Assembly: GCA_963727525.1 (NCBI GenBank)
Contig: CAVSGO010000005.1
Coordinates: forward strand, 320,001-384,000
Length of the DNA stretch: 64,000 bases
From: an uncultured bacterium
GTDB lineage: Bacteria > Krumholzibacteriota > Krumholzibacteriia > LZORAL124-64-63
Direction: 5' to 3'
Part shown: positions 11,753 through 35,787 of the stretch, in pieces
Numbering within the stretch: the first letter of the stretch is position 1
How the letters are laid out: every line of letters begins with the position of its first letter
Notes under the pieces: model-generated
What the model saw: the letters and a program-made list of their open reading frames with translations, nothing else
Told to the model about the DNA's origin: nothing
The model's database searches: none
Position numbers and translations under genes: made by a program

Positions 11753-11753
11753 G

Positions 11754-12467: not shown

Positions 12468-12476
12468 ACACCGGAG

Positions 12477-13706: not shown

Positions 13707-13723
13707 CTCGCGGTGGCGTCCGT

Positions 13724-15229: not shown

Positions 15230-15248
15230 GGTTCCATCCTTTGTCGGG

Positions 15249-19018: not shown

Positions 19019-19038
19019 GTCGACCCTCCCTCGCACGG

Positions 19039-20247: not shown

Positions 20248-21920
20248 GCCACGACCCTCGCCAGCTCGGCCAGGGAGGTCATGCCCGCGATAGCCTTGTC
20301 CAGCGCGTCCTGCAACAGAGTGCGCGTGCCGGTCTCTTCCGCCCGGGCGCCCAGCTCATCGGAGGTGGCACGCGTGTTGATCAGCGAACGGACGGCTCCG
20401 TCCACACGCAGGTACTCGAAAACGGCGTTGCGGCCGGCATAGCCGGTATCCCGGCACGATGGGCATCCCTTGCCGACGAAGAACGTGTGCTGCACCGGAT
20501 CCACACCGAGCTGGGTCAGCAATTCAAGTTCATCCTCGTCGGGATCGTGCCGCACGCGACACAGCGGGCACACCTTGCGCACCAGCCGTTGAGCGAGCAC
20601 CGAGATCAGCGTAGCCGACAACAGGAATGGTTCCACGCCCATCTCGACGAGACGGGGGATCGCGCCCACCGCACTGTTGGTATGCAGCGTGCTGAACACG
20701 AGGTGGCCGGTGAGGGCGGCGCGGATCGCCATCTGCGCCGTCTCCTGGTCGCGGATCTCGCCCACGAGCAGGATGTCAGGGTCCTGACGCAGGATGGATC
20801 GCAGTCCGGCTGCGAAGGTGAAGCCCTGCGCCGTGTTGATCTGAGCCTGATTGATCGACGGCAGCTCGTACTCCACCGGATCTTCCATGGTGATGATCTT
20901 CACGTCGGGCTTGTTCAGCTGGGCCAGCGCCGAGTACAGCGTGGTGGTCTTGCCCGAACCGGTGGGGCCGGTCACCAGGATGATGCCGTGTGGCAGCGAG
21001 ATGTCCCGCCGGAATGCCCTGTGCATCGCCTTGCTCATGCCCAGCCTGTCGAGGCCCACGATGAGGTTCTGCTTGTCGAGCACGCGGCACACCACCGTTT
21101 CGCCGTGCACGGTGGGAAACGTGGAGACGCGCAGATCGATCGAACGCTTGCCGAGGTCGTAGAGGATGCGGCCATCCTGCGGCACACGCGTTTCCGAGAT
21201 GTTCATGCCCGCCAGGATCTTCAGGCGCGTGGTCACCATGCTCTGCAGTTCCTTGGCCATGAACGGCCCCTGCACCAGACCGCCGTCCACGCGATACCGG
21301 CTGCGTACGACCCGTTCCTCCGGCTCCACGTGGATGTCGGTGGCACCGTCCTCGATGGCCTTGCGCAGGATCAGATCGACGAGCTTGATGAACGGCGAGT
21401 CGATCTCGCCGAGCTTCGCACCGGCCTCCACGGCGTCGCGCGCCTCGGTGATGCTCGCCTGCAGCAACGAGTCGGTGTCGCTCTTGGCGCCGTAGTAGCG
21501 CAGCAGGGCATCGGCGAGGTCCGACTCTGTCGCGTGCACGACCTCCACGTAGTGGCCGGTCATGCGCGCGACGGCATCGATGGTATCGAGGTCCAGGGGA
21601 TTCGCCATGGCAAGCGCGAGCGTCTTGCCCCTGATGGTCAACGGAAGTATGCGGTGCTCCTCGGCGAAGGCTTGCGGCAGCAGATCGATGGCCTCGCGCT
21701 GGATCCACTCCTCGGCGAGCGACACATAGCCCACGCCGGCCTGGTTGGCCAGGACGCGGCCGATCTCCTTCTCCGAGCAGATGCCCAGCCGCTGCAGGAT
21801 CGTGCCCAGCTTCTCGCGGGTCTGGTGCTGTTCCTTCAGCGCCTGCTCGAGCTGATCCTCGCTGATCCGTCCGGATTCAACGAGGATCTGCCCGAGCTTC
21901 TTCGTCCGTGTGACGACCAT
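20244..21920 (-). CDS. GspE/PilB/MshE assembly ATPase
   Basis: GPTGSGKTTT, EDPVEY, LRQDPD..VGEIRD, HLVFSTLHTN, tetracysteine motif, N-terminal MshEN-like repeats. Confidence 0.95.
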   Translation of the reverse strand: MVVTRTKKLGQILVESGRISEDQLEQALKEQHQTREKLGTILQRLGICSEKEIGRVLANQAGVGYVSLAEEWIQREAIDLLPQAFAEEHRILPLTIRGKTLALAMANPLDLDTIDAVARMTGHYVEVVHATESDLADALLRYYGAKSDTDSLLQASITEARDAVEAGAKLGEIDSPFIKLVDLILRKAIEDGATDIHVEPEERVVRSRYRVDGGLVQGPFMAKELQSMVTTRLKILAGMNISETRVPQDGRILYDLGKRSIDLRVSTFPTVHGETVVCRVLDKQNLIVGLDRLGMSKAMHRAFRRDISLPHGIILVTGPTGSGKTTTLYSALAQLNKPDVKIITMEDPVEYELPSINQAQINTAQGFTFAAGLRSILRQDPDILLVGEIRDQETAQMAIRAALTGHLVFSTLHTNSAVGAIPRLVEMGVEPFLLSATLISVLAQRLVRKVCPLCRVRHDPDEDELELLTQLGVDPVQHTFFVGKGCPSCRDTGYAGRNAVFEYLRVDGAVRSLINTRATSDELGARAEETGTRTLLQDALDKAIAGMTSLAELARVVA

Positions 21921-21944
21921 GCGCGCTCTCCTGCTCCGTCTTCG

Positions 21945-22601
21945 CTACTGCTGGTTCGAGCCGCGGATCACGTAACCGATGTCGTCGCCACTCACCTGTT
22001 CGTTCGTCTGCGCGTCGGCGAACGGTGTCTGGAAGCGGCCGTCGGGTCCCGCCGAGATCACCATCACGTTGTGCTGCGGCGCTGTGGCCACGTCGTTGCG
22101 CGCGTAGTACACATTGACAACGAACGGACGGCCCCAGGGATCGAGAGGCACGCGATCGAGGTACGGCCCGTTCCAGCCGGGACGTACGTGCGGGCTCGAG
22201 CTGGGCGTATACAGCGGGGTGTTGCCGCTGCCATCGGAGTTGCGAATCAGAAGGTTGTCGAGCGTGCCGGCAAGGCCGCGGCTACGCCACCCATTCGACG
22301 CGCCGTCGACGCCCGATGGCAGGCCGTTGTTGCCACCACCCATGTCGGCGTTGCCCGCCAGCCGCGCGAGGTCGTACGCCGTGTCGGCGTCGTACTGCAG
22401 CGGCCAGTCGCCCACGTCCTTATAGAACGCCGCCACCGCATTGCCGATGACCTGCGCGTCGCTCTGCGCGCGCGCGACCTTTCCCTCATTGAGGTTCTTG
22501 ATCAGCGGCGGCGCGATGGCGATGGCCATGATGGCCACGAGCGCTACGGCGATGATCACCTCGAAGAGCGTGAAACCTGCGTTGCGTCGAATACGGAACA
22601 T
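21945..22601 (-). CDS. GspG-like major (pseudo)pilin
   Basis: GFTLFEV, GWNGPYL..VPLDPWG, SAGPDG..DDI. Confidence 0.88.
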   Translation of the reverse strand: MFRIRRNAGFTLFEVIIAVALVAIMAIAIAPPLIKNLNEGKVARAQSDAQVIGNAVAAFYKDVGDWPLQYDADTAYDLARLAGNADMGGGNNGLPSGVDGASNGWRSRGLAGTLDNLLIRNSDGSGNTPLYTPSSSPHVRPGWNGPYLDRVPLDPWGRPFVVNVYYARNDVATAPQHNVMVISAGPDGRFQTPFADAQTNEQVSGDDIGYVIRGSNQQ

Positions 22602-22946
22602 GACGCTGCATCCTCCAGCGTTAAATGGCGTCGGCGCCGCGTCGAGCGACGGTCCGGGTCCAGGACATCGACCGCAAACTCGCGCGGTCGGCCCGGTGGT
22701 CATGACGACCCGGAAACGAATCCTCGGCCACGAAGTGCAAGACGCGGGCCGCGGGCGTCGGGACCCGGCCCCGGAACAAAAGCACGCGTAATCTGCATGA
22801 CCGCCGAGTAGCGACGGACCATCAGTAAAATCAAAACGCAGAGGGTTAAAAAATTAGCGAAACCGTGATGGTGGGGCGACGGGAGTCGGCGGCATGGCGG
22901 CGGAACGTCCCGGCAATTCCTTCCCCCACCAGGAATATCCCGCCCG

Positions 22947-23840
22947 TCAGCGGTAGCACCACGAGTCCACGTCCTGGTCCGCGAGGAAGGCCTCGGCCCG
23001 CCGCCCCTCGAGCAGGGCCAGCGTGGCGAGGATTCCGGCTTCGAGGCAGCAGTCGGCGACGACGGTGACCGATCGCGGCGCCTGGTGCACCGGCCAGCCG
23101 GTGCGGGGATTCAGGACGTGCGAGTAGCGGACGCCGTGGCGCAGCAGGTAGCGACGCGCGTCGCCGCTCGTGGCCAGTCCGCCGGCGGCCAGCGGGAGCT
23201 GGCGCCAGGCCTGACGATCGCGCGTGGGGTCCTCGATGCCGATCGACCAGTGGCCGGCGCCCGGCGGCCGCAGGGCGCGCAGATCGCCGCCGAAGTTCAC
23301 GAGCACCCCCTGCGGCGTGGCCTCGCCGAGTTGCTCGGCTACCCGGTCGACGGCGTACTCCTTGCCCAGACCTCCGAGATCGATCTCCATGCCGGCGGGC
23401 AGGACGAGCGTGGGCGGATCCCAGCGCACCCTTTCCCACCCGATCGCGGGCAGCAGGGCCTTGACCTGCGTCCGCGACGGCACCCGGTCGGATCCGTCGA
23501 AACGCCACACACGACGCAGGATCCCGGTGGTGATGTCGAAGCGTCCGTGGCTGAGGGTGTGGCAGCGGTCGGCGAAGGCCAGGAGTCCTGCGGTCTCCTC
23601 GTCCACGGTGACGGGAGCGCCGGCGCTGGTGTTGATGGTATGCACGACACTGTCGTCGCGGTAGCGGCTGTACTTGCGCTCGATGCGCCAGGCCTCGGCG
23701 GCTGCCTGCTCGGTCAGCCGCCGGGCCTGTTCACGATCGTCGACATCGATCAGGATCTCGCAGGGGCTCGCCATCGCGCGGAACCGGCCGACGCAATGCG
23801 TCTGGCCCGCGGGACGCTCGAGCGTGATCCCGTCGGTCAT
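22947..23840 (-). CDS. apbE: FAD:protein FMN transferase
   Basis: SRYRDDS, FDIT, DLGGLGKEYAVD, ATSGD, HVLNPRTG. Confidence 0.92.
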   Translation of the reverse strand: MTDGITLERPAGQTHCVGRFRAMASPCEILIDVDDREQARRLTEQAAAEAWRIERKYSRYRDDSVVHTINTSAGAPVTVDEETAGLLAFADRCHTLSHGRFDITTGILRRVWRFDGSDRVPSRTQVKALLPAIGWERVRWDPPTLVLPAGMEIDLGGLGKEYAVDRVAEQLGEATPQGVLVNFGGDLRALRPPGAGHWSIGIEDPTRDRQAWRQLPLAAGGLATSGDARRYLLRHGVRYSHVLNPRTGWPVHQAPRSVTVVADCCLEAGILATLALLEGRRAEAFLADQDVDSWCYR

Positions 23841-25147
23841 TTCAGGCCGAACGAGTACCCCACCTGGAAGATGACGGCATCCACGGTGGGAAACAGGTCG
23901 AACCCCTGCAGCCCGGCCGGCGCGTCCACGGGATGGCTGTCGCCCGTCTGCCAGTAATACTCTCCACGCACCGTAACCGTGTGGCCACTGGCCAGCGTGC
24001 GACCGTATTCGAGCCCCACAGTCTTACCCGTGAACTTGCCGAGGCGATAGTCAGCCGACGCGACGTCGGGTAGCGCCCCGCCAGTGAGCAGGTAACGGTG
24101 ATAGAAATCGGCCGCCGTCTGGCGGTACCAGCGCACGTGCGGCTGCAGGTACGCATTCTCGCCCAGGCCCCAGCGCCAGCGCGCCTCGGCGGTGTGCGAA
24201 TGGATGCCCCAATCGTCGTGGTAGAAGCGGTACGAGAGATCGAGGACCGACCAGCCGAAGTGGTGCTTCAATTCACCGAACACGGCCTGCCGCGTCCGCG
24301 ACTCGGGTCGCTTCTCGAAGATGTACTGCGACGGATCGCCGGACACGGGATCGACCACGCTCAGCAGCTTGTAAGGATCCGTCTGGTAGCCGCTGACGTG
24401 GCCGAGCGAGTAGCTGAACTGCACGAGTGTGCGGCGGTCGAGGACCTGGGTGAGGCCGAAGTTGGCATCGACCAGGTTCTTCTGCCCATCGCCGAGTGCG
24501 CCGGGCCGGTTGCCGCCCTCGTTCTCGCCCTCGCCTCCATTGGCAATGGGCGCCGGCATCACGTCGAATCCCACGGGACGGCCTCCCATGGGCCGCACGA
24601 TGTCGTGCGACAGGCTGAGCGAGGCGGCCAGGGTCGTGTTGCGCTTGAAAAAGTCGCGCGACAGCGACGTGCTCGCCCCCAGCGACGTGTAGTCGCGCTC
24701 GAACGAAATGTTGGCACCCAGGCCAAGGTTCGTGAGGCGATCCAGCGGCATCAGGTAATTGCCGTCGACCGCGAACCGCAGGTCCTGGAAGGTGTCGTCG
24801 AGAGGCGTCTCGCCGGCCGGCGTGGTGTAGCCGCTGCTGCCGGAAGGACTCGTGAAGGTCTGGGCGCTCGGCGCTGGCGTGGCGCCGTTGGCCGAAGCGC
24901 CGGAGAGGGCGTCGAGCACGACCTTGACCTTGCCCGTGCGACCACCCGTGAAATCCGACGCGGCCTCGAGCAGCGCCTCGAGGGCACCCACCCGGCCGGG
25001 TTCCTTGTAATAAAGCACCGCCGAATCGAGATTCGTCGTCTGGGCCGGTGCCGCATGCACGCCCACGAGGGTACACGCGGCCGCCAGGCCGGCGCGCAGG
25101 CCATGTCGCAGGCGTCCGTGTCCCGTTCTCGGATCAGTTGCAGCCAC
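23837..25147 (-). CDS. DUF3570 family outer-membrane beta-barrel protein
   Basis: GTG start overlapping DUF4266 end; DALSGAS, DPYK, RP..R, YRFYHDDWGI.SHT, SADYRL. Confidence 0.85.
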   Translation of the reverse strand: MAATDPRTGHGRLRHGLRAGLAAACTLVGVHAAPAQTTNLDSAVLYYKEPGRVGALEALLEAASDFTGGRTGKVKVVLDALSGASANGATPAPSAQTFTSPSGSSGYTTPAGETPLDDTFQDLRFAVDGNYLMPLDRLTNLGLGANISFERDYTSLGASTSLSRDFFKRNTTLAASLSLSHDIVRPMGGRPVGFDVMPAPIANGGEGENEGGNRPGALGDGQKNLVDANFGLTQVLDRRTLVQFSYSLGHVSGYQTDPYKLLSVVDPVSGDPSQYIFEKRPESRTRQAVFGELKHHFGWSVLDLSYRFYHDDWGIHSHTAEARWRWGLGENAYLQPHVRWYRQTAADFYHRYLLTGGALPDVASADYRLGKFTGKTVGLEYGRTLASGHTVTVRGEYYWQTGDSHPVDAPAGLQGFDLFPTVDAVIFQVGYSFGLK

Positions 25148-25406
25148 AGCCCCCACCCCCCGAACTGAGGCCGCCGGTGGATGCCTCCTTGCTGAAGTAG
25201 ATGTGGGCATCGATCGCGCTGTCCATCGGGCCGGCGCCAACGGCCATGGCATCCTGCGCCAGGAGGTCGCGTTCCCATGGCTGCACTCCCACGCTGCCGC
25301 AACCGGCCAGGGCCACGGCCAGCCCGAATCCGACGAGCACCAGCAGGAACATGCGCGGCCGGAGATCGCGCATCCTGGTGATCATGACATCAGAGTCCCG
25401 GGTCAT
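25134..25406 (-). CDS. DUF4266 family lipoprotein
   Basis: Lipobox LAGC; VQPWERDLLA; H..FSKE; C-terminal GGGCGCN; start uncertain. Confidence 0.88.
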   Translation of the reverse strand: MTRDSDVMITRMRDLRPRMFLLVLVGFGLAVALAGCGSVGVQPWERDLLAQDAMAVGAGPMDSAIDAHIYFSKEASTGGLSSGGGGCGCN

Positions 25407-25896
25407 GTTCGCCCCCTTCCGCCAGCAGTCCCGTCAACTCGGACTCGAGCGCGGCCACGTCGTCGGGATGGAATCCGAGGTGGGTGGCGCGCAGCTTGCC
25501 GCTGCGATCGTAGACGTAGCTCGTGGGCATGCCCTGGAGATCGAACGCTTCGGCAACCTTGCCGTCGGGATCGTAGACCACGGTCATGGGCGTGGGCAAT
25601 CCGGACAGGAAGCGGTCGGCGAGCTTGCGCTCGTGATCCACGTTCACGGTGACGATCGTCAGGCCCTGCTGGCCGTGACGTGTCTGCATCGTCCCCAACC
25701 AGGGCAACGACGCCTGGCAAGGCTTGCACCACGAGGCCCAGAAATCGACGACGACCACGTCGCCGTGGTGTGCCGCGAGCGCGAGGGAGGCCGGCGCCTC
25801 GTCCAGGCTAGCCGGCGGGGCGCCCATCGCGAACGCCGCCGTCAGGACGACGCCGAGCGCGGCACAGCCCGTTACGATGCGGTGGAGTAGAGTCAT
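25390..25896 (-). CDS. TlpA-family periplasmic thioredoxin
   Basis: VDFWASWCKPC, GMPTSY; signal peptide. Confidence 0.92.
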   Translation of the reverse strand: MTLLHRIVTGCAALGVVLTAAFAMGAPPASLDEAPASLALAAHHGDVVVVDFWASWCKPCQASLPWLGTMQTRHGQQGLTIVTVNVDHERKLADRFLSGLPTPMTVVYDPDGKVAEAFDLQGMPTSYVYDRSGKLRATHLGFHPDDVAALESELTGLLAEGGEHDPGL

Positions 25897-26014
25897 CAGG
25901 CTGACCTCCGGTGAGTGCCGATCGGGGTGGCAACGGCGTGGCAGCGGGCGTCGCGAGCGGGTTGAACCCTAGGTTTCAGGAGTTGTTCCGTCAAACGACT
26001 GTATTCGTAGACTT

Positions 26015-27355
26015 TCATCGTATCGCTCGCGCGTCGACGCCCGGCGCGGGATCGGGCACGGGCTGCTCTCCACCGAAGCGTACGCCGAGTTCCCGCAGGA
26101 ACGCGAACGGCGCGATGCCGCCCGCAAGGATGAAGACGTCGTCGTTGGGCACCAGCAGCCGGCCGCCGTCCTTCTCGAGCACGCACGCCTCGGGCTGGAT
26201 CTGCGCCACCGTGGTGCCACCGTGAAAAGCGATGCGTCCACTCGCGATGAGCGGCTGGATATGCTCCTGGTTGCGCTGCTTGATACGCAGCAACTCCGGT
26301 TTCCGGTACGAGAGCGTGACCTCGCAGTCGTCCTGGTGGGCCAGTCCCACGGCCGCCTCCACCGCCGAATCGCCGCCGCCCACGACGAGCACGCGGCGCC
26401 CGGCAAACGCCTCGGCGTCGATGAGCTTGTAGGCGACCTTGGCGAGGTCCTCGCCGGGGACATTGAGCTTGCGCGGCGTGCCGCGCCGTCCGAGGGCCAG
26501 GACGACGTGGCGGCAGCGCCAGGTATCAGAGGTCGCCTGTACGGTGAATTCGCCGACGTTACCGGTGACGCCCGTGACCCGCACTCCCGTGCGGATGTCG
26601 AGGCCCGAGCCAGCGTGCAGCTCGTTCCAGATCGCGAGCAGCTCCTCTTTCGAGTACTCGTGCTTGGGCAGGCGCCCGATCACCGGCAATTCCACCGGCT
26701 GCACCATGACCAGCTTGCGTCTGGGGTACTGCAGGATCGTGCCCCCGGCCCCTTGCTGGTCGAGCACGACGCACGAAAGCCCGCGCTCGCGCAGCACCAT
26801 GCCCGCAGTGATCCCGGCCGGGCCGGCCCCCACGACGACGGCGTCCAGGAGATCCGGGTCGCCGGGACTTCCGAGCGTCGCGATACGTTCGGCCACCAGG
26901 CGCCCCTGGGCCACCGCGTTGTTGATGAGTGCGAAGCCGCTCAGCTCGCCGGCGATCCAGAGGCCCGGCACCGTCGTCTGGTTATGCGCGTCGAGCAAGG
27001 GGATGTCGTCGCGCCGTGTGATGTCACCCAGACCTACCTGGATCGCCCCGACCGGACACGCCTCGGCGCACAGCCCGTGGCCGATGCAGCGCACGCCGTT
27101 GATCACGACGGCCTTGCCCATCACGATGCCCAGGACGTCGCCCTCAGGGCAGGCGCTCACGCAGGAGCCGCAACCGATGCACTGGCTGGCGTCAATCAGG
27201 GGATACTGGCCCGAGGGGCGATCCATGCCCAGCTCGCGCGTCATATGCAACCGCCGCGAATCCTGGCCGCGCCGGCGACGGAACTGGATGGCGTAGGTGG
27301 AGATGACCACCGACATGATCAGCAGCACGACAACCCAGATCGCGATCGATTCCAT
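26015..27355 (-). CDS. Membrane-anchored ferredoxin / FAD-NAD(P) oxidoreductase (TrxR/YpdA-like)
   Basis: N-terminal TM helix; CIGCGSCVSACP and CIGHGLCAEACP; GAGPAG; GGGDSAVE. Confidence 0.85.
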   Translation of the reverse strand: MESIAIWVVVLLIMSVVISTYAIQFRRRRGQDSRRLHMTRELGMDRPSGQYPLIDASQCIGCGSCVSACPEGDVLGIVMGKAVVINGVRCIGHGLCAEACPVGAIQVGLGDITRRDDIPLLDAHNQTTVPGLWIAGELSGFALINNAVAQGRLVAERIATLGSPGDPDLLDAVVVGAGPAGITAGMVLRERGLSCVVLDQQGAGGTILQYPRRKLVMVQPVELPVIGRLPKHEYSKEELLAIWNELHAGSGLDIRTGVRVTGVTGNVGEFTVQATSDTWRCRHVVLALGRRGTPRKLNVPGEDLAKVAYKLIDAEAFAGRRVLVVGGGDSAVEAAVGLAHQDDCEVTLSYRKPELLRIKQRNQEHIQPLIASGRIAFHGGTTVAQIQPEACVLEKDGGRLLVPNDDVFILAGGIAPFAFLRELGVRFGGEQPVPDPAPGVDARAIR

Positions 27356-27370
27356 GCGTCGTCCTCGCCG

Positions 27371-28969
27371 TCAGAACCGCCGCCGCCACTGCAGCAGCCA
27401 GCGGTCGCCCGCGATATCCCGGCCCCAGTCGCGGTGCACCTCGGCGCCGAGCGACCAGCCGGCGGTGAGGGACCAGTCGACGCCGACCTCGCCCCAGGAG
27501 CTGGACCGGCCACCGGCCCCGTCGATGCCGCGATAGCCGTAGTATCCCGCGGCGACACGGACGTCGAGCCCGCCGCGCGAGCGCCGCGCGAGCCCCAGGG
27601 ATGGCGACCAGCCGGAAAGATATGGACCGTCGAAACCGCGAAGCGCCAGGTCGAGATCCAGCCCGCGGGTCGGCAGGTTCACGGCATAGATCCGACTGCT
27701 CCACGAGTACACCGTCGTAGCGCTGGCGTCGTCGCGCCGTAGGCTCCCACGCAGGTCGAACGTCTTGCCGGGGGCGGGTCGCCAGGTCACGCCCGCGCCG
27801 AGGCCGCGGCGGCCGGCATCGCGGAATAGACTGTCCGGCAGAGCTTGCGATTCCCAGGTGCGCACGGGGTTGCGGTCGTCCCAGCCCAGGCTCAGAGCTA
27901 CCTGCCGCGACGCTCGCCAGCGGCCGGTGAGCGCCAGGCTGGACAGCGCGAGTCGCGTACCGGTGGCTTCGTGGCGCCAGCCGCGGTTCACGTCGACCTC
28001 GGCAGCCTGGAGCAGACTCAGACCCGACGCGTTGCGCCAGCTCGTCGTGATGGACACGTACTCGCGGCTGATCGCGCTGCGCCGGTAGCGCCCCACCGCC
28101 GACAGGACGACATCGAGCGCGCGGCCACGTGCTGTCCGCCCATCGATGTGGGCAGTGAACCCGACGAGTCGATCGTCGGTAGCGAAACCGAGATCCGACC
28201 AGCGCGGGGCGAAGCCGCCGAACAGCCCCACGCGCAGCGGTCCGGACACCCGCACGTCGGCGCGCAGGCCGTCGAAAGGGCCGGCGGCCGCCACGAGCCG
28301 CGAGCCGACGCGGCCGATCGCGTAGTTCCAGTTGCGGCGCGGGTCGTCCTGGACCAGCGCGATCTCGAGCACACGGTTGCGCCATTCCTGGCCGGGAACC
28401 GACGCGGTATAGCCTTGACGCGTCAGGTGCCGCAACCGGCCACGCGCTCGCAGCTCACGCCCACCTCCGAGTCCACGCACGAGCACGCGGAACGGCAGGG
28501 TCACGAGATCGCTGCTCAGTCCAACGTCCAGTTCCTCGCTCGTGTGATCCCACGCGAGTCCCAGGTAACCGGACATGTCGACGCCGGCGTTCGCCTCGGA
28601 CGTCGCCACCTGTCGCGTGCGTATGGACGCGCGCATGCGCTCCGGCGCGGGCGGTGGCGCCGGTGCGGGAGGCTCCTCGGTCACCTCCGGCACGTACGTC
28701 ACGACGTCGCCTGAAAGGATCTCGCCGGTCGCCACCACCACCCGGCACGAGGCCGAGTGGTCGGCCACGAAGACCACCTCCAGCTCGGCGATCTCCTTGC
28801 CATCGCGATGCACGCGCGGATGGTCGCCGAGGCTCACACCGCGCAACGTCCCCGCGTCGAGGTAGACGTGGTCGGCGGACACGTAGCGCACCTCGCACTG
28901 CGCGGACTGGCCGCGCGCGGGTGCGACGAGGGCAAACAGGAGGCCTCCGAGTATCAGCTGGCGCCGCAT
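27371..28969 (-). CDS. Putative outer-membrane beta-barrel (porin-like) protein
   Basis: Signal peptide, small N-domain, Pro-rich linker, alternating amphipathic strands, terminal Phe; coupled to cytochrome gene. Confidence 0.65.
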   Translation of the reverse strand: MRRQLILGGLLFALVAPARGQSAQCEVRYVSADHVYLDAGTLRGVSLGDHPRVHRDGKEIAELEVVFVADHSASCRVVVATGEILSGDVVTYVPEVTEEPPAPAPPPAPERMRASIRTRQVATSEANAGVDMSGYLGLAWDHTSEELDVGLSSDLVTLPFRVLVRGLGGGRELRARGRLRHLTRQGYTASVPGQEWRNRVLEIALVQDDPRRNWNYAIGRVGSRLVAAAGPFDGLRADVRVSGPLRVGLFGGFAPRWSDLGFATDDRLVGFTAHIDGRTARGRALDVVLSAVGRYRRSAISREYVSITTSWRNASGLSLLQAAEVDVNRGWRHEATGTRLALSSLALTGRWRASRQVALSLGWDDRNPVRTWESQALPDSLFRDAGRRGLGAGVTWRPAPGKTFDLRGSLRRDDASATTVYSWSSRIYAVNLPTRGLDLDLALRGFDGPYLSGWSPSLGLARRSRGGLDVRVAAGYYGYRGIDGAGGRSSSWGEVGVDWSLTAGWSLGAEVHRDWGRDIAGDRWLLQWRRRF

Positions 28970-30219
28970 CAGTCGCCCTGCCCGCGCGGGTGGCACTGGT
29001 AGCAGGCCGTGCTCACATACTGATAGTTGTTGACTTCCCGATGATCACGATCGGTATCCGTCTGATTGTGTTCGTGACAGAAGATACACTCGAACACCGT
29101 GTAGTCCGTCGCCACGACGTGGCAATCGGCGCAAACGTTCCACTCGTTGCGATGCCTACCGCTGTAGATCGGGAACAGTGTGTCGTGATCCCAGTTCGCG
29201 GGTTGCCAGGCCGTCGTGGTGTGGCACGTCGCGCAGGTGGTCGGAAAGTTCGACGCCGTGTGCGGCGGGTCGTTGGTCTGCTGGAAGTCGGTCTGGTGGC
29301 ACGCGTAGCAGCCGGTGGGCGTACCCGTGTAGCCGCTCGTGTGGCATGAGGCGCATTCGGTGGTGCGGTGCGCGCCCGTCAGCGGGAACGCCGTGGCATC
29401 GTGATCGAAGGTGGCCGGCTGCCAGGCGTTGATCGTATGGCAGTTCGTGCAGCTCGTGGCGAAGCCCGCGGCCACGTGCGCCGGGTCCGTCGTCTGCTCG
29501 TAGTCGGTACGATGGCACGCGTAGCAATCGGTTGGAGTGCCGGCGAAGCCGCTGGTGTGGCAGCGCGCGCATTCCACACCCGCGTGTCCACCCGAGAGGG
29601 GGAACGACGACGGATGGTGGAAATCACGCGATCCCCACGAGGTGGCGAAGACGCCGTGGCAAACGCGGCAATCGGTGCCGAAACCGGCGCTCGCATGTGC
29701 CGGCGCGGTGGTCGCCGCGTAAACGTCGGCATGGCACGTGTAGCAGTCGGTGGGCGTGCCCACGTAGTCGTCGCCCGGGGCGCCGCGATGGCAGGCCTCG
29801 CAATCGACACGTTCATGCACGCCGACGAGCGGCATCGACGTGCCGTCGTGCAGTCGTCGCATACGCTCGCGGTCGATGAAGCCCGTCGTGGCGTGGCAGT
29901 GCGCGCAGTCCGGCCCCAGCCGCCCGCGATGGGCGTCGGCGTGGCAGTCGACGCAGCTCGTCCCCACGTGGGAGAACACGAGGTCGCCGTGGCAGGCGCG
30001 GCACTGCACATCCTTGTGGCGTCCCGTCAGGGGAAATCCCGTCGTTCCGTGGTCGAATCCCGCGGGTCGGCCCGTGATGCGCCAGGACGCCTCGACATGG
30101 CAGGTGGCACAATCCAGATCGGCATTGCCGTGAGGGTTGTCCTGGGCACGCGCCTCGACCCCCATCAGGGCGAGGGCAGTCAGCGCGAGCAGGCTCGAGG
30201 TCGACAAGCGACGACTCAT
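28969..30219 (-). CDS. Multiheme c-type cytochrome, 16 CxxCH
   Basis: Signal peptide; 16 CxxCH counted; repeated FDH...FPL.G.H units. Confidence 0.93.
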   Translation of the reverse strand: MSRRLSTSSLLALTALALMGVEARAQDNPHGNADLDCATCHVEASWRITGRPAGFDHGTTGFPLTGRHKDVQCRACHGDLVFSHVGTSCVDCHADAHRGRLGPDCAHCHATTGFIDRERMRRLHDGTSMPLVGVHERVDCEACHRGAPGDDYVGTPTDCYTCHADVYAATTAPAHASAGFGTDCRVCHGVFATSWGSRDFHHPSSFPLSGGHAGVECARCHTSGFAGTPTDCYACHRTDYEQTTDPAHVAAGFATSCTNCHTINAWQPATFDHDATAFPLTGAHRTTECASCHTSGYTGTPTGCYACHQTDFQQTNDPPHTASNFPTTCATCHTTTAWQPANWDHDTLFPIYSGRHRNEWNVCADCHVVATDYTVFECIFCHEHNQTDTDRDHREVNNYQYVSTACYQCHPRGQGD

Positions 30220-31928
30220 GGCGTCTCCTTCCCGGCGGGAACCTTCGCCCCGTGGCACGCCGCACATGTGGTTGGAAGCGGCTTGAACGTGAGTGCGTGA
30301 CCCGGTTCTCGCGGCTCATGGCAACCCGTGCAGGCCACCTTCTCGTGGCCGCCGCGCAGCGCAAAACGGCTGTCGCGATCGTGATCGAATCTCTCGGCCA
30401 GCCAGTCCGCGGGGACATGGCAGCGGTCGCAGGTCGTCCGCCCCTCGGCGTCGGCGAGCTGGCCGTCATGGATGTCGGCGTGGCAGGTGGCGCAGGTACG
30501 CGACGCCCCCGTGTCGCCGAGGATCCAATCCCTGCCCTCGCCCCGCGGATGGCATGCGCGGCACGCCACCTGCGCATGGCGCCCCGTCAGGTCGAAGCCC
30601 ACGCCGGTGTGGACGAAGGCGACCTGGCGCCAGCTCCCCTCGTCATGGCAGGTCGTACATCCGGTCACAGCCGCGAGCTTCTGCGTTCGCTCGCCGTGCG
30701 GGTCCCGATGACAGTCGGTGCACGATCCGTGTGGGGGGAGCAGCTCGGCGGCGTGTGTCCCGGCTCGCGGCTGGTGGCAAGCGACGCAGGCCACGGCGAG
30801 ATGGGCGCCGCGCAGGGGAAACGCCGTGCTGTCGTGGCGCGCCACGGTGAAAGTCGCACGTGCGTAGTCGGCCACCGTATGGCAGTCGGCGCACGCGAGC
30901 AGGTCGGCCCTTCCCCGAGCCTTCACGCCGTGATCGTCGCGATGGCAATTCACGCAACGCGCGAAGGCGGGCCGCCGCCTGTCGCCGCCATGGCACGCAT
31001 TGCAGGACAGGCCCGCGTGGCGGCCGCGCAGCGGATATCGCGTGCGATCGTGGTCGAATGTGCTGCCCTCGATCTGGCGCCATCCAGCGGTCACATGGCA
31101 ACTACTGCAGTTCGGACCGAGCGCCCCGGCATGGGCATCCCTGTGGCAGCTCGTGCACTGCGTGGCGGCCACGCCCGCATACTTCCGCCGGGGCGCGCCA
31201 CCCTGGCGTGCGGCGGGCTGCAGCGTGTGGCAGGAATCGCACGCCGCCGACGCATGACGCCCCGTGAGAGGAAATCCGGTCTTCGCGTGATCGAACCGGG
31301 CGGCGGGTTTCCAGGCCTGCGTATCGTGACACTCGGTGCAAACCTGCCGGAACTGCCCTGCGTGGGGATCCTGATGGCAGGCCGCGCAAGCCGTGGCCAG
31401 CCCGAGGAACGTGCGGGTCAGGTCCTTGCCCATCGCGCGCCAGCGCGCCGGTTCCTGGATGTGCGACGGCATATGGCAGTCGCGGCATTTCAGTGTGGCG
31501 TGACGCCCGGTGAGCGAGAACCCCGTCGTCCCGTGGTCGAAGGCCTCCCGCCCGCCCTCCCAGTAGACGAGATCGTAATCCACGCCCTGATGCTCGACGT
31601 GACAATCGGCGCAGCGAGAAAACCTCGCCTCGCGGTGCAATCCCGGCCCGCCGGCACGCATGGCGGCGATCGCCTCGTGGCATGCGAGGCACCGATCGGT
31701 GACCTCGCGACTCCCGAACGTGTGGCAGCGCGAGCATTGCTTGATGCCTTCGAGTTCGCTGTGGAACCGGCTGAGCGGGCCCGGAGAGAGCTGCGCCCAG
31801 GCAGACCCGGATACGGGCAGAACCAGCACTAAAGCCAGCGCTGATCCAATATAAAGGCATCTTGTCGCATTTTGCGGACGGTAGTAAATGATGCTGTTTC
31901 CTCGCCATCCGAGGATTCGGGGAATCAT
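30216..31928 (-). CDS. Multiheme c-type cytochrome, 20 CxxCH
   Basis: ATG overlapping upstream TGA; AQLSPGPLS..H; 20 CxxCH counted. Confidence 0.92.
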   Translation of the reverse strand: MIPRILGWRGNSIIYYRPQNATRCLYIGSALALVLVLPVSGSAWAQLSPGPLSRFHSELEGIKQCSRCHTFGSREVTDRCLACHEAIAAMRAGGPGLHREARFSRCADCHVEHQGVDYDLVYWEGGREAFDHGTTGFSLTGRHATLKCRDCHMPSHIQEPARWRAMGKDLTRTFLGLATACAACHQDPHAGQFRQVCTECHDTQAWKPAARFDHAKTGFPLTGRHASAACDSCHTLQPAARQGGAPRRKYAGVAATQCTSCHRDAHAGALGPNCSSCHVTAGWRQIEGSTFDHDRTRYPLRGRHAGLSCNACHGGDRRRPAFARCVNCHRDDHGVKARGRADLLACADCHTVADYARATFTVARHDSTAFPLRGAHLAVACVACHQPRAGTHAAELLPPHGSCTDCHRDPHGERTQKLAAVTGCTTCHDEGSWRQVAFVHTGVGFDLTGRHAQVACRACHPRGEGRDWILGDTGASRTCATCHADIHDGQLADAEGRTTCDRCHVPADWLAERFDHDRDSRFALRGGHEKVACTGCHEPREPGHALTFKPLPTTCAACHGAKVPAGKETP

Positions 31929-32797
31929 AATCTCCACGTGTATCCCAGGGCGACAGCGACCGTGACATGCACGATCATGACCAGGATCATGATGAAAGCA
32001 AAGGGTTTGTGCAGTACGTGCCACCAATGGAAGAGGTCCCGGACGAGGTTGAAGAAGAACATACGGCGCGAGAGCAACACCCACCGACGTGCCGTGGCGA
32101 ATCCGCGTGGTCCCAGGTCCATCCCAATTCCTAGTAACCAAGTTCGCAATTGTCGGGCCAACGTGGCATTGACGAATGGCAGACTCAGGAGGGCGAGAAT
32201 GGACGGACGGCCCTCCAGCTGGCCCATTGCCACCCGCTCGAGTCCGGCAAGGGCCCGGTCATCCATCCCGTGCTCGGTGGACAGCGCCACGAGCATCGAC
32301 TCGCCGCGCTCTTCGACCTCGGACAGGGTCAACGCGTCTCCGAGCACGTTGCGCGGGATCTGCTGGTAGAGAAACCGCCCGATGACCCCGCTCGCGGCCA
32401 CGGCGATCATCGACCAGTAGCTGACGGCCACGAGGCCATCCACCTTGAACGCCGTGTGCAGGGTGATCAGCACCGGCCCCGCGACACCAAGGAAAATATG
32501 ATACCGCAACCAGATACGCAGATTGCCCCAGTGTTGCATAGCGCGCACGCGCTTGCGCAGCGAGTACAGCAGCAAGAGCAGGATCATCGCGCTGCCGATG
32601 ATGCCCAGCCCGTGCCCCACGTCGCCGGCGGAGCGATAAAGGAGGTAGCCGGAACTCCGTGGCCGCTCGAGAAGAGGCGTCCGGTAGTAGTCGAAGGCGT
32701 GCCAGACGGTATGGAAGACGACGAGCCCGACGGCCAGGCTCAGGATCGCGATGATCGTCCGATGAACGATGTCCGCGGTTCGGTTCATGCTTCGCAT
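31925..32797 (-). CDS. Inner membrane protein, putative heme-b (ferric-reductase-like TM) subunit
   Basis: About 5-6 TM helices; LYSLRKR, WLRYHIFLG, LHT, WHVLH, IVHV. Confidence 0.7.
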   Translation of the reverse strand: MRSMNRTADIVHRTIIAILSLAVGLVVFHTVWHAFDYYRTPLLERPRSSGYLLYRSAGDVGHGLGIIGSAMILLLLLYSLRKRVRAMQHWGNLRIWLRYHIFLGVAGPVLITLHTAFKVDGLVAVSYWSMIAVAASGVIGRFLYQQIPRNVLGDALTLSEVEERGESMLVALSTEHGMDDRALAGLERVAMGQLEGRPSILALLSLPFVNATLARQLRTWLLGIGMDLGPRGFATARRWVLLSRRMFFFNLVRDLFHWWHVLHKPFAFIMILVMIVHVTVAVALGYTWRL

Positions 32798-32901: not shown

Positions 32902-34053
32902 CTATTCGCGGATCGCCCCCGCGACGCCGATGTCCCCCGGGTTCGACACGATGGCCCCGACATCCAGCCCTCGCCGCACAATCTGGTAGACTCGCTCGGT
33001 GGCCACCACCTGGGCCTCGTGGGTGAAGCAGGCTGCGACCCTGACACGGCCGCGGGCGCCGAGTTCCAGCCGCAGCGCTCGATCGGAGAGGATCCGACGC
33101 AGGGCGCGGGCAAGGGCTCGCGCGTCGTCGGGAGGCACGAGCAGGCCCTCGCGGCCATCGCGGATGATCTCCCGGCTGCCGCCCGACACCGTGGCCACGA
33201 CCGGGACACCACGGGCCAGCGCCTCGATGGTGACCAGCCCGAAGGGCTCCGCGCGGGAAGGCACCACCTGCACATCGAACGCCGCCGACAACCGGTCCGC
33301 GCCATGCCGGTAACCGAGGAAGCACGCCACGTCGTTCAGTCCGAGACGTGCCACGAGGCCCTCGAGCTCCCGCCGGTAGGCGCCGCCGCAGGAATCGGCG
33401 CCCACGATCGCCAGGCGCAGGCCAGGCAGGAGCCCATGGATTGCCGCCACGGCCTCGACGAGCGTCGCCACCCCCTTGCTCGGGCACAGTCGCCCCACGT
33501 AGCCGATCACGAGGTCGTCCGCTGCGAGGCCGAGTTCGGCGCGTATTGCCGCCGGAGCCACCACAGGCGGGGTCCCGACGCCATTGGGAATGGTGACGAC
33601 GCGGCACGCCGGCCATCGCGTGGCCAGCAGACCGTCGCTCACGGCCTGGCTCACGGCGATCATGGCGCGCACGCGGTGCAGGAATGGGGCCTTGAGACGC
33701 GGAAAGGCGATCGGTTCCAGCCGGTGCCGGGTGCCGACGAGCGCGCTGGGCATGCCCAGCGTGGCCATGGCGGCCATGTAGTAGTCTCGGGGGCTGTGTG
33801 CGTGCAGGATATCCGGCTGCAACCGGCGCAGGGCACGCCGCAGCGCGAACATGCCCCAGGGCTCGTACCAGTCGCGGAGCCGGATCGTGCTCGTAGCCAC
33901 CCCGGCCGCCGCCAGTTCACGCGCCAGGGCGCTACCCGGCATGGCGATGACATGCACCACGTGGCCCCGGTCGCGCAGCGCCACGGCGAGATCGCGAAGG
34001 TGCACCTCGCCGCCGTAGAAGGCTCGCTGGGAACTCAGATGTACGATACGCAT
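32902..34053 (-). CDS. Glycosyltransferase family 4
   Basis: GGE, YVGRL...KG, EPFGLVTIEALARGVPVV. Confidence 0.93.
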   Translation of the reverse strand: MRIVHLSSQRAFYGGEVHLRDLAVALRDRGHVVHVIAMPGSALARELAAAGVATSTIRLRDWYEPWGMFALRRALRRLQPDILHAHSPRDYYMAAMATLGMPSALVGTRHRLEPIAFPRLKAPFLHRVRAMIAVSQAVSDGLLATRWPACRVVTIPNGVGTPPVVAPAAIRAELGLAADDLVIGYVGRLCPSKGVATLVEAVAAIHGLLPGLRLAIVGADSCGGAYRRELEGLVARLGLNDVACFLGYRHGADRLSAAFDVQVVPSRAEPFGLVTIEALARGVPVVATVSGGSREIIRDGREGLLVPPDDARALARALRRILSDRALRLELGARGRVRVAACFTHEAQVVATERVYQIVRRGLDVGAIVSNPGDIGVAGAIRE

Positions 34054-34230
34054 GAGTCGACAATATGCCTCAATGAACGCCGCGCGCGGCCGAAAACCAC
34101 GGCATCTCTCCCGAAATTGACAGTCCGGGAATCATAGACTAGCGTGGCCCAAGCCACCATCGGGAAGATCCCTACCTCGCTCGCGTCCTGCAACGTCACG
34201 GCCACAGGCCGCACAGGATCGGGAGGCCCC

Positions 34231-35787
34231 ATGTTCGTCGCTGTCATTCGCCGCCATCGGTGGTTGCCGCTGCTGCTCTTGCTGGGCTTGATGCTGCTCT
34301 GCAGCTTGCCCATCGCCGCACTTGCCGCCCCGCACTCGTCGGCACAACCGACGACCGAGGCCGACGTGTCGTTGCCGCTGGACACCGAGCACGCGGGACT
34401 CCACGTCGACCCGGTGGGCAAGATGCCGCTATGGACGTGCCTGCCATTCGTGGGCATCCTCCTGAGCATCGCGATCTTTCCCCTCGTGGCCCCGCATTTC
34501 TGGCACCGCCACTTTCCCAAGGTGAGCGCCTTCTGGGCCCTGCTATTCGCCATACCCTTCGTGTTCGTGCTGAAGGAGGCGGCGTGGCAGTCGATCATCC
34601 ACATCTACCTGATCGACTACATCCCATTCATCATCCTGCTCTGGTCGCTGTTCACGATCAGTGGCGGCATCGTACTCGAGGGCGACCTGCGCGGCACGCC
34701 GGGCGCGAACCTGGTCGTGCTCGCCATCGGGACCTTCCTTGCGTCCTGGATCGGCACGACCGGCGCGGCCATGCTCATGATCCGGCCCATCCTGCGCGCG
34801 AACGCCTGGCGCCGCAGCCAGGTACACATCGTCTGCTTCTTCATCTTCCTGGTGGCGAACGTTGGCGGTAGTCTCACGCCGCTCGGCGACCCGCCGCTGT
34901 TTCTCGGCTTCCTGCACGGGGTGCCGTTCTTCTGGGTCACCCGCGGCCTCTTCGAGCATCTGCTCGTCACGGCCGGGATCCTGCTCATCATCTTCTACCT
35001 CGTCGATCGGCGCGCGTACCGGCTCGAGCCCGACAAGCCCGTCGCCACAGCCGGCAAGGGCGCCGGCATCCGGCTGCGCGGCACGCACAACTTCCTGTTC
35101 CTGCTGGGTGTGATGGCCGGCGTGGTCTTCTCCGGCAGCGGCGCGGCGAAGGCCATGCCCATCATCCCGATCTACGGCCACGTGGCGGTGCCTCTGGCCA
35201 ACTGGATCAAGGACGTCGTGCTCATCCTCATGGGTGTGCTCAGCCTCGCGACCACGCGCAAGGATCTGCGGGTGGCCAACGGCTTCAACTGGGAACCGAT
35301 CAAGGAAGTCGCCTACCTGTTCGCAGGCATCTTCATGACGATCATCCCGGCCCTGGCGATCCTCAAGGCCGGCACCGAGGGCGCCCTGGCCGGTCTGGTG
35401 ACGGCCGTGCAACATCCGTGGCAGTACTTCTGGGTCGCCGGCGGTCTCTCGTCGTTCCTCGATAACGCGCCCACCTATCTCACGTTCTTCAACGCGGCGC
35501 TCGGTCAGATCGGCGCCGACGAGTCGCAGGTGGCCGGCATGCTGGGCCACGGGGCCGAGATGCTGCGCAATCCGGCGTTCATCAAGACGCTGACGGCGAT
35601 CAGCGCCGGCGCGGTGTTCATGGGTGCCAATACCTACATCGGCAATGCCCCGAACTTCATGGTCAAATCCATCGCCGAGGAGTCGGGCGTCCCCATGCCG
35701 AGCTTCTTCGGCTACATGATCAAGTACTCGTTGGTCTACCTTGTCCCGGTGTTCGTCCTCGTGACGCTGGTCTTCTTCATCTTCTAA
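34231..35787 (+). CDS. Putative Na+/H+ antiporter (IT superfamily)
   Basis: Multi-TM; IGTTGA, ANVGGSLTPLGDPPLFLG, SSFLDNAPTY, YIGNAPNFMV. Confidence 0.88.
   Translation: MFVAVIRRHRWLPLLLLLGLMLLCSLPIAALAAPHSSAQPTTEADVSLPLDTEHAGLHVDPVGKMPLWTCLPFVGILLSIAIFPLVAPHFWHRHFPKVSAFWALLFAIPFVFVLKEAAWQSIIHIYLIDYIPFIILLWSLFTISGGIVLEGDLRGTPGANLVVLAIGTFLASWIGTTGAAMLMIRPILRANAWRRSQVHIVCFFIFLVANVGGSLTPLGDPPLFLGFLHGVPFFWVTRGLFEHLLVTAGILLIIFYLVDRRAYRLEPDKPVATAGKGAGIRLRGTHNFLFLLGVMAGVVFSGSGAAKAMPIIPIYGHVAVPLANWIKDVVLILMGVLSLATTRKDLRVANGFNWEPIKEVAYLFAGIFMTIIPALAILKAGTEGALAGLVTAVQHPWQYFWVAGGLSSFLDNAPTYLTFFNAALGQIGADESQVAGMLGHGAEMLRNPAFIKTLTAISAGAVFMGANTYIGNAPNFMVKSIAEESGVPMPSFFGYMIKYSLVYLVPVFVLVTLVFFIF

Follow-up and report, generated by a model that had tools for sequence, protein, structure and literature searches.

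Gene Organization of the Locus

We analyzed a cluster of nine genes (g1–g9) in a 64,000-nucleotide stretch of DNA, referred to below as the window, from the genome of an uncultured bacterium of the Krumholzibacteriota lineage (GenBank assembly GCA_963727525.1, contig CAVSGO010000005.1, positions 320,001–384,000). A reading made from the DNA letters and their translations (below, the sequence-only reading) had proposed that these co-oriented genes form a complete trans-envelope electron conduit in which 36 c-type hemes are joined to a flavinylation and thiol module. All nine open reading frames (ORFs) listed by that reading are present on the minus strand (Table 1). In the order of transcription, they encode an inner-membrane protein (IMP), two multiheme cytochromes (MHCs), an outer-membrane barrel and a membrane-anchored iron-sulfur (FeS) flavoprotein, which together make up module A, and then a thioredoxin-like protein, a DUF4266 lipoprotein, a DUF3570 protein and an ApbE-family transferase, which make up module B.

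The genes are closely spaced. ATGA overlaps are found at the g1/g2, g2/g3 and g8/g9 junctions, the start codon of g4 lies on the stop codon of g3 (a 1-nt overlap), and g5 follows g4 after 15 nt. The overlaps at the g6/g7 and g7/g8 junctions are contingent on the choice of start codons; for g8, the start may be at 25252, 25210, 25156 or 25147. Translation of g2 starts from the ATG at 31928; for g3, M17 at 30219 is the most probable start. Between g5 and g6, the intergenic stretch contains a GGAGG ribosome-binding site upstream of g6 and a possible, weak promoter (TTGACG-17 nt-TAGGGT) that was read by eye; a consensus scan of this gap gave no promoter, and no terminator-like hairpin was found in it.

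Table 1. Features of the window discussed in the text (coordinates are those of the window)
Feature	Position	Strand	Description
g1	31925-32797	-	Inner-membrane protein, 290 aa, PCC3 IMP type, putative di-heme b transmembrane electron carrier
g2	30216-31928	-	20-heme c-type cytochrome with signal peptide
g3	28969-30219	-	16-heme c-type cytochrome
g4	27371-28969	-	Outer-membrane beta-barrel, 22 predicted strands
g5	26015-27355	-	Membrane-anchored FeS flavoprotein
Module A	26015-32797	-	g1–g5
g5–g6 gap	25897-26014		118 nt, widest intergenic gap of the cluster
g6	25390-25896	-	Periplasmic TlpA/ResA-like thioredoxin, WCKPC; first gene of module B
g7	25134-25406	-	DUF4266 lipoprotein
g8	23837-25252	-	DUF3570 protein, known ApbE flavinylation substrate family
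g9	22947-23840	-	ApbE-family FAD:protein FMN transferase
Module B	22947-25896	-	g6–g9
T2SS-like gene set	13724-22703	-	Type II secretion-like genes (five listed below, plus unassigned ORFs)
Pseudopilin	21945-22703	-	
GspE	20244-21920	-	
GspF	19039-20247	-	
GspG-like	17984-19273	-	
Secretin	13724-15229	-	
Chemoreceptor	8184-10322	+	Cache domain
ABC exporter	10502-13706	+	HlyD/MacB type
Glycosyltransferase	32902-34053	-	GT4
Transporter	34144-35787	+	CitMHS_2

The Inner-Membrane Protein g1 Carries Four Invariant Histidines

The product of g1, a protein with 12 histidines, matches no family in Pfam (E ≤ 0.01) or NCBIfam. Its AlphaFold2 (AF2) model, with a predicted local distance difference test (pLDDT) score of 91.3, contains five transmembrane (TM) helices. 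The first four occupy residues 3–33, 59–83, 93–114 and 121–144, a soluble part spans residues 158–223, and a long helix extends from residue 229 to residue 284; ca. 100 residues of soluble helices thus separate TM4 from TM5. The motif W96-x3-H100-x13-H114 lies on TM3, S136-G137-x2-G140 on TM4 and W259-x3-H263-x13-H277 on TM5.

The conservation of these residues was followed in an alignment of 31 sequences from Krumholzibacteria-like metagenome-assembled genomes (MAGs), Zixibacteria, KSB1, Gemmatimonadota, Eisenbacteria, Polyangiaceae and others. All 31 sequences, which come from several phyla, share the four histidines H100, H114, H263 and H277. No variation is seen at S136, G137, G140 and W259 either, and W96 reaches a conservation of at least 90%. 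The histidine layout is that expected for two stacked bis-histidine b hemes, which makes g1 a putative di-heme carrier. Our own application of the positive-inside rule would place the H100/H263 pair near the cytoplasm and the H114/H277 pair near the periplasm.

The family of g1 is large and unnamed. A g1 profile searched against 1.84 billion representative sequences retrieved 4559 clusters at E ≤ 1e-3, including 956 at E ≤ 1e-30, and in the ESM Atlas g1 falls among unnamed clusters only. Apparent fusions of g1 to g5 or to a cytochrome (P0386, P0321, P0359, P0367 and P0378) were considered as Rosetta-stone evidence and rejected as frameshift artefacts of metagenome assemblies, because the TM5 motif is lost in them and R/P/G-rich out-of-frame stretches are present at the joins. 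Prediction of a g1–g5 complex from two alignments, run without controls, scored 0.19 against a mark of 0.32 and is counted for neither side.

Multiheme Cytochromes and the Outer-Membrane Barrel

The cytochromes encoded by g2 and g3 carry 20 and 16 CxxCH motifs, respectively. By reasoning from sequence alone, 36 such motifs in ca. 990 residues are far beyond what chance would give. Both proteins match cytochrome c7/c3 families (for g2, Cytochrome_C7 at 3.3e-23 and Cytochrom_CIII at 3.4e-15), with ca. 26 residues per heme in g2 and ca. 24 in g3. Neither resembles the MtrA decahemes: the DmsE-family model TIGR03508 scores g2 at 47.4 bits against a cut-off of 192.2 and does not match g3.

In the window, in Emticicia and in 19 intact loci, the number of hemes in proteins of the g2 type is either 20 or 23; left out of this count are a locus fragmented by frameshifts (L003) and one with 19 hemes in a mis-called ORF (L034). 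Proteins of the g3 type, whose genes always adjoin the barrel gene, contain 13–64 hemes in relatives, and the summed c hemes of the module reach about 87 there. In g3, the spacing of heme motifs repeats as about 33–36, 15–16 and 25 residues, which corresponds to a triheme unit, and the protein is composed of 11.8% T, 10.9% A and 8.8% G. We presume that g2 spans the periplasm and that g3 is located on the barrel or on the extracellular side. In three Gemmatimonadaceae MAGs (L020, L021 and L029), the barrel-adjoining cytochromes are single ORFs of 1523–1692 aa with 58–64 CxxCH motifs, which are among the highest heme counts of this analysis.

No family match was found for g4 in Pfam, the MtrB-type barrel families included. 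The AF2 model, built from a 35-sequence alignment (pLDDT 87.9), shows a barrel of 22 strands between residues 131 and 531. The other parts of g4 are a signal peptide, a small beta domain near the N-terminus (residues 23–92), a disordered Pro-rich linker and a C-terminal RRRF. When the model was compared with the Protein Data Bank (PDB) by Foldseek, 366 matches were obtained at E ≤ 1e-3, with FimD/PapC ushers, porins and TonB-dependent receptors at the top.

g5 Is a Membrane-Anchored Flavoprotein with Two FeS Motifs

The g5 protein starts with an N-terminal TM helix, which is followed by FRRRRGQDSRRLH, a ferredoxin domain and a domain with the thioredoxin reductase (TrxR) fold for flavin adenine dinucleotide (FAD) and NAD(P)H. 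The last two are matched by the Fer4 dicluster and Pyr_redox_3 (5.6e-39) families. In the alignment of the family, the TM helix and the ensuing positive patch are conserved, and the glycine motifs for FAD and NAD(P)H as well as an S-Y-R motif past the NAD(P)H strand are invariant.

Two FeS motifs are present, C59-x2-C62-x2-C65-x3-C69-P and C90-x2-H93-x2-C96-x3-C100-P. Residues C59, C65, C69, P70, C90, C96, C100 and P101 are invariant, and C62 is conserved in at least 90% of the sequences. In the second motif, histidine takes the place of the second cysteine in Emticicia and, among 24 family members, in at least 90%. This suggests that the second motif holds a Cys3His-ligated or 3Fe cluster, perhaps the site of electron exit.

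The flavoprotein part of g5 (residues ~170–440) has its closest solved kin in NADPH-dependent Bdr/YpdA (PDB 7a7b, Bdr, 2.8e-51 with the g5 profile) and in TrxR-type ferredoxin-NADP+ reductases (FNRs; 3ab1 and 2zbw, ~1e-27 to 1e-28). The fold family is common to these proteins, but g5 is not an equivalog of YpdA/Bdr, as its TIGR04018 score of 150 bits stays below the cut-off of 339.9, and both YpdA/Bdr and the TrxR-type FNRs lack the N-terminal TM helix and the ferredoxin domain with two FeS motifs. In g5 homologues of Gemmatimonadota and Eisenbacteria (L011, L012, L013, L015, L023, L025, L026 and L032–L035), an extra CPRC...CxxC zinc ribbon is located between the TM helix and the ferredoxin domain.

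Genes g1–g5 Occur as One Unit

Loci around 34 relatives of g4 from Krumholzibacteria, Zixibacteria, KSB1, Gemmatimonadota, Eisenbacteria, Acidobacteriota and Polyangiaceae were searched by tblastn with the window proteins; many of these loci end at contig edges. Homologues of g1 were present in 21 loci, those of g2 and g3 in 27 loci each, and those of g5 in 23. The genes occur in five different orders (g1-g2-g3-g4-g5, g1-g5-g2-g3-g4, g5-g1-g2-g3-g4, g3-g4-g5-g1-g2 and g3-g4-g1-g5). Six relatives from the same family have g1–g5 in the order seen in the window, with neither flank in common with it. Clusters in shuffled order are found in at least seven phyla, or at least eight if Bacteroidota (Emticicia) are included.

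A second set consisted of the genome of the window and 40 relatives of its class, which were searched for g5 at E ≤ 1e-60 and for g1 and g4 with profiles at E ≤ 1e-10. All three genes are present in an identical set of 14 out of 41 genomes and, wherever the assembly permits, on the same contigs. Since the co-occurrence is strict and the genes cluster despite the variable order, we conclude that g5 belongs to the conduit. The link that the sequence-only reading had drawn between the reductase and the conduit is borne out by these data, which fit a route from NAD(P)H to the exterior that could bypass quinones. Its 36 c-heme motifs, the beta-barrel, the membrane histidines, the domain make-up of g5 and the dissimilarity of the cytochromes to MtrA were likewise recovered.

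Two plasmids, the only ones with the module or a g1-like IMP in the plasmid collection searched, extend the picture. The 100-kb plasmid pEMTOL02 of Emticicia oligotrophica DSM 17448 (L060:8899-20697, with the cluster at 12001-20697) carries the genes in the order ccsA-g1-g5-g2-g3-g4. The g1 homologue is 33.8% identical to g1 of the window (2e-31). One cytochrome has 23 hemes and the other 40, both the IMP motifs and the FeS motif with its histidine are preserved, and the g4 position is taken by a gene for a 538-aa hypothetical protein with no Pfam match. A plasmid of Methylophaga pinxianii (L061:9995-13772) encodes a distant g1-like IMP (E 6e-5) in which HX13H, WX3HX13H and SGxxG are present. 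It is flanked by a membrane-anchored 612-aa protein with FAD_binding_6, NAD_binding_1 and 2Fe-2S domains and by a 7-heme c7-type cytochrome. A non-homologous NAD(P)H-flavin-FeS module thus takes the position of g5, which argues that IMPs of this family are fed by cytoplasmic NAD(P)H dehydrogenases. The Methylophaga system is porin-less and contains DUF1622, and its neighbours are a full ccm operon and copper/heavy-metal genes. A search for further conserved neighbours of module A revealed lineage-specific genes only, which occur in six loci and have no informative Pfam matches.

The Flavinylation Cluster Is a Separate Module

The identities proposed for g6–g9 by the sequence-only reading agree with family matches: Redoxin for g6 (9.2e-17; a ResA-type model matches at 2.3e-19, under its cut-off), PF14086 (DUF4266) for g7 (6.9e-20), PF12094 (DUF3570) for g8 (1.8e-127) and PF02424 (ApbE) for g9 (2.6e-67). 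The g7 protein has a LAGC lipobox and a C-terminal end GGGGCGCN with the expected CGC tail (C-G-C-N). The g8 protein has a single strict flavinylation motif, DALSGAS (SGAS, residue 117), and a relaxed one, LGAST, spans residues 191–195. In g9 and in 10 orthologues from DUF3570 clusters of relatives (L037–L046), only a few residues precede the conserved core and a hydrophobic signal peptide is missing, whereas the presumed ApbE substrate, DUF3570, is exported.

ApbE-DUF3570-thioredoxin-DUF4266 clusters were described by Méheust et al. (2021, eLife 10:e66878, PMC8238504), who counted 227 clusters with and 316 without DsbD, described the CXC tail of DUF4266 and, in Chlorobium (C. luteolum), showed experimentally the flavinylation of DUF3570, which has two [S/T]GA[S/T] sites. 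As far as that account goes, g6–g9 share the gene content, and a CXC tail and one strict [S/T]GA[S/T] site are likewise found; they differ in that the second motif of g8 is a relaxed one and g9 has no signal peptide. The genes fit the class of 316 clusters without co-localized DsbD. In the genome of the window, matches to DsbD_TM are confined to a single other contig (C7).

In relatives, module B is self-contained: TlpA, DUF4266, DUF3570 and ApbE are found together in all 11 strong DUF3570 loci, and a TlpA-like gene is adjacent to DUF3570 in each of them. In contrast, none of the 34 loci around g4 relatives contains DUF4266, DUF3570 or ApbE by tblastn; TlpA-like matches in two of them are weak and ca. 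7 kb distant. Ten relatives have both modules; in every one of them, the two either do not share a contig or are separated by at least 284 kb. Module B is also absent downstream of g5 in the six same-family relatives (0/6), one of which (L062) extends only ca. 0.9 kb past g5. Three genomes have module A without a DUF3570 match, and nine have a DUF3570 match without module A.

Since the two sets of genes share none of 34 loci and are adjacent in none of 10 relatives that have both, and since module B is self-contained in 11 out of 11 loci, we conclude that the nine genes are two separate modules arranged head to tail. The boundary between them is the 118-nt g5–g6 gap, the widest of the cluster and the one with the possible promoter. 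Module B most likely functions independently, DsbD being encoded at another place in the genome. The sequence-only reading therefore stands in part. Its conduit, with the barrel, the conserved histidines, the linked reductase and the non-MtrA cytochromes, was upheld, while the union of this conduit with a flavinylation/thiol module was not: in our synteny survey the two halves were never adjacent elsewhere, an outcome of the kind that this reading had itself named as refuting, and the flavin/thiol branch that it had added to the electron path is not supported.

A second, divergent DUF3570-like family was seen in relatives (L047–L057), with 24–30% identity to g8 and Pfam E-values from 1e-30 to 1e-46. 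It is paired with a TlpA-like gene in 10 out of 11 loci, and no ApbE or DUF4266 homologue is found within the 1.5-kb flanks.

Relation to PCC3 and Other Known Systems

The porin-cytochrome cluster type PCC3 was defined bioinformatically by He et al. (2017, Front Microbiol 8:1584, PMC5566968) as consisting of a porin, one MHC that is extracellular, one that is periplasmic, and an IMP. According to their description, the extracellular MHC has a median of 34 hemes (up to 85) and T/S/A/G-rich repeats, the periplasmic MHC has a median of 21 hemes, and the IMP of PCC3 and PCC4 is a conserved hypothetical protein of ~300 aa that has five TM helices and carries SGxxG on TM4 and WX3HX13H on both TM3 and TM5. 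In later surveys (PMC9900912, 10.1101/2025.02.27.639646), periplasmic MHCs with 21, 24 or 27 hemes and extracellular MHCs with 10–35 hemes were reported.

Judged by these described features, g1–g4 match PCC3, which the sequence-only reading had not recognized, and g5 makes the locus a five-gene variant; the founding clusters of S. lithotrophicus ES-1 and L. cholodnii were compared by description only. We treat the locus as a variant because the fifth gene is co-inherited (14/41 genomes, 23/34 loci). Every feature of the PCC3 IMP is present in g1 (290 aa, five TM helices, SGxxG and both W-x3-H-x13-H motifs), and the porin gene adjoins an MHC gene, as g4 adjoins g3. The 20 hemes of g2 (20 or 23 in relatives) compare with ~21 (21/24/27) in the periplasmic MHC of published accounts. 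The 16 hemes of g3 (13–64 in relatives) compare with 10–85 in the variable MHC; composition, repeats and variability fit as well, the location of g3 being predicted. The differences from the description of He et al. lie in the barrel, for which up to 42 TM segments were predicted as compared to 22 strands in g4, and in the hosts, which are Alpha-, Beta- and Gammaproteobacteria there and Krumholzibacteria-like and other non-proteobacterial phyla here.

A possible precedent for the fifth gene is found in a study of karst MAGs (PMC13264449, FEMS Microbiol Ecol 2026). It describes 11 group-1 clusters with a 4–5 kb MHC gene beside a ~20-strand porin, notes an FNR gene nearby in seven of them and suggests potential functional coupling. 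Judged by description alone, these clusters are very probably of the same five-gene type. That account consists of one sentence and a figure, does not tie the reductase to the IMP and contains no motif, phyletic or mechanistic analysis. It is the one prior mention of a porin-cytochrome cluster with a reductase gene that was found in the literature searched, and nothing beyond the suggested coupling was seen there. The terms FAD, ferredoxin and Pyr_redox are absent from eight supplementary files of He et al. 2017. The cluster type is, then, already known from bioinformatics; what is new is the hypothesis that the IMP is coupled to the reductase.

MtrCAB, MtoAB and PioAB follow the same general logic: their outer-membrane barrel and periplasmic MHC, in some cases joined by an MHC at the surface, carry electrons over the outer membrane. 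The locus studied here differs in that it encodes no decaheme MtrA-type protein and in that g4 has no MtrB-type Pfam match. In Mtr systems, electrons come from quinol via CymA, and the MtrB barrel has 26 strands.

Proteins of the NOX, FRE, STEAP and MsrQ families have, like g1, two His pairs with 13-residue spacing on TM3 and TM5, an analogy taken from PMC5566968. Unlike them, g1 has no match to PF01794, five rather than six TM helices and a helical insert of ~100 aa before TM5. The dehydrogenase, g5, is not a fused FNR-fold domain but a separate TrxR-fold protein with two FeS clusters predicted from its motifs.

Proposed Route of Electrons and Alternative Explanations

We give a slightly better than even chance to the reading in which the nine genes are two independent modules and module A is a PCC3-type trans-envelope conduit with an added cytoplasmic input enzyme, leading from NAD(P)H to the exterior. 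In this scheme, g5, tethered at the inner membrane face by one helix, would oxidize NAD(P)H at FAD and, through contact with g1, pass on single electrons via two FeS clusters, one of which would have a Cys3-His (or 3Fe) site. The g1 protein would move electrons over the inner membrane on two bis-His b hemes, from the H100/H263 heme on the cytoplasmic side to the H114/H277 heme on the periplasmic side. The 20 c hemes of g2 would bridge the periplasm, and the 16 c hemes of g3, held by the g4 barrel, would deliver electrons to an acceptor outside the cell, for instance Fe(III)/Mn(IV) minerals, humics or, less certainly, O2. Such a route would need no quinone step.

We infer that electrons flow outward, since their export is favoured both by the membrane potential and by NAD(P)H with its low potential. 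On thermodynamic grounds, as we reason, donors far below −320 mV would be required for inward flow, and the chain would dissipate the membrane potential, as NOX does, rather than conserve energy. Besides respiration, its role could therefore lie in redox balancing, in the assimilatory reduction of iron or in the production of extracellular superoxide. A narrower claim, to which we give somewhat less than an even chance, is that g5 and g1 together are a quinone-independent NAD(P)H:cytochrome oxidoreductase that wires the NAD(P)H pool to the outside via two FeS clusters, two b hemes and 36 c hemes, as a trans-envelope counterpart of NOX/FRE. The system could then be an electron-dumping valve, an assimilatory ferric reductase or a superoxide source, not an energy-conserving chain, and its extracellular wire would be adjustable between 13 and 64 hemes.

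Several observations weigh against the route from NAD(P)H to the exterior and against the independence of the two modules. Neither fold nor sequence comparisons connect g1 significantly to any solved heme protein. Foldseek with the g1 model found nothing in the PDB at E ≤ 0.001 (best E 0.41), and a wide VIA-align search gave a best Z of 8.3 with no convincing match, CybB (Z 7.8), FdnI (Z 7.0) and STEAP1 (Z 7.0) lying in the noise band of helical bundles. The g1 profile produced only chance matches to PDB sequences (E > 1). The g5 gene does not always adjoin the others: in one Gemmatimonadaceae genome it lies 3 kb upstream and is transcribed divergently, and in a second one it is on a separate contig. 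A genome with a lone g4-like barrel has no g5. In PMC5566968, the IMP is proposed to exchange electrons with quinone, with inward flow from Fe(II). The PCC3 clusters of Gallionellaceae (PMC9900912) and Sideroxydans CL21 (10.1101/2025.02.27.639646) are reported as four genes without g5, and both accounts call the function of PCC3 unverified. As to the two modules, since there is no terminator in the g5–g6 gap, read-through co-transcription across it is possible in this genome. DUF3570 matches are commoner in genomes with module A than in those without it (11/14 versus 9/27; strong matches, 7/14 versus 5/27). Since the genomes are kin, this enrichment may reflect a shared lifestyle at most, and a loose functional tie between module A and DUF3570 is possible.

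Module A could instead be a conduit for electron uptake or for Fe(II)/Mn(II) oxidation, in which the IMP reduces the quinone pool and g5 is an accessory protein (for instance, a redox sensor, an enzyme for repair or a side input of another kind). Such a hypothesis has been published for the PCC3 of iron oxidizers (PMC5566968, PMC9900912, 10.1101/2025.02.27.639646), and it agrees with the reported up-regulation of the PCC3 IMP gene in iron-oxidizing Sideroxydans CL21 (10.1101/2025.02.27.639646), with the canonical clusters that lack g5, and with the HX13H pairs, which are reminiscent of quinone-reactive cytochromes b; PMC5566968 itself likens the IMP to both FRD/NOX and cytochrome b and proposes a reaction with quinone. 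We nevertheless consider it unlikely for the locus studied here. Against it stand the strict co-occurrence of g5 with g1 and g4 (14 of 41 genomes) and the clustering of these genes across phyla, as well as the non-homologous NAD(P)H-FAD-2Fe2S protein found in Methylophaga beside a g1-like IMP. If electrons were to run inward to NAD(P)+, they would, by our own reasoning, be opposed by the membrane potential and the potential of about −320 mV. No quinone-site motif turned up, though no test aimed at one was made. Finally, most MAGs that have any type of porin-cytochrome cluster are described as heterotrophs in PMC13264449.

A non-respiratory role for g1 and g5, as an NAD(P)H-driven transmembrane reductase for assimilatory ferric reduction or extracellular superoxide and hence a bacterial FRE/NOX counterpart, appears quite unlikely. 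The module is present in Gemmatimonadaceae and in Emticicia oligotrophica, which are aerobic heterotrophs, and export of electrons from NAD(P)H would, by our reasoning, spend the membrane potential and conserve no energy, both of which would suit such a role. The logic is also the same, from NAD(P)H via flavin to two bis-His b hemes on TM3 and TM5, in line with the comparison made in PMC5566968. However, at least 36 c hemes, and up to about 87 in relatives, would be costly for assimilation, g1 does not match the Pfam family Ferric_reduct, and no iron-uptake genes lie beside the module in the examined loci.

A single nine-gene system, in which the conduit and the reductase either supply a flavin/thiol branch (made up of TlpA, DUF4266, flavinylated DUF3570 and ApbE) or are supplied by it, is very improbable, since the common strand, the close spacing, the gap without a terminator-like hairpin, the enrichment of DUF3570 and the 316 clusters without co-localized DsbD, whose electron source is described as open (PMC8238504), are set against the gene distribution given above and the position of the widest gap exactly at the module boundary.

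Neighbouring Genes

A gene set resembling that of a type II secretion system (T2SS) lies directly downstream of module B, on the same strand (Table 1), and could export the surface cytochrome. A link between this set and the conduit was considered and rejected as incidental, with homologues of the pseudopilin, GspE and GspF present in 0, 1 and 0 of the 34 loci, respectively. The chemoreceptor, ABC exporter, glycosyltransferase and CitMHS_2 genes look unrelated to the conduit.

Implications

The nine-gene locus is a reminder that adjacency in a single genome is not a functional link; here, the flavinylation cluster is a mere neighbour. PCC3-type clusters are widely cited as candidate conduits for extracellular electron transfer. 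Co-inheritance of g5 with the IMP suggests a concrete model, in which electrons would exit from NAD(P)H and quinones would be bypassed, and the Methylophaga analogue points in the same direction. Since the full module is carried by a plasmid of the cultured and harmless Emticicia oligotrophica DSM 17448, this model is directly testable. If it is true, g5 would be the first defined cytoplasmic partner of PCC3-type IMPs, and clusters of this kind in metagenomes would be read as a sign of electron export by heterotrophs and not of iron oxidation.

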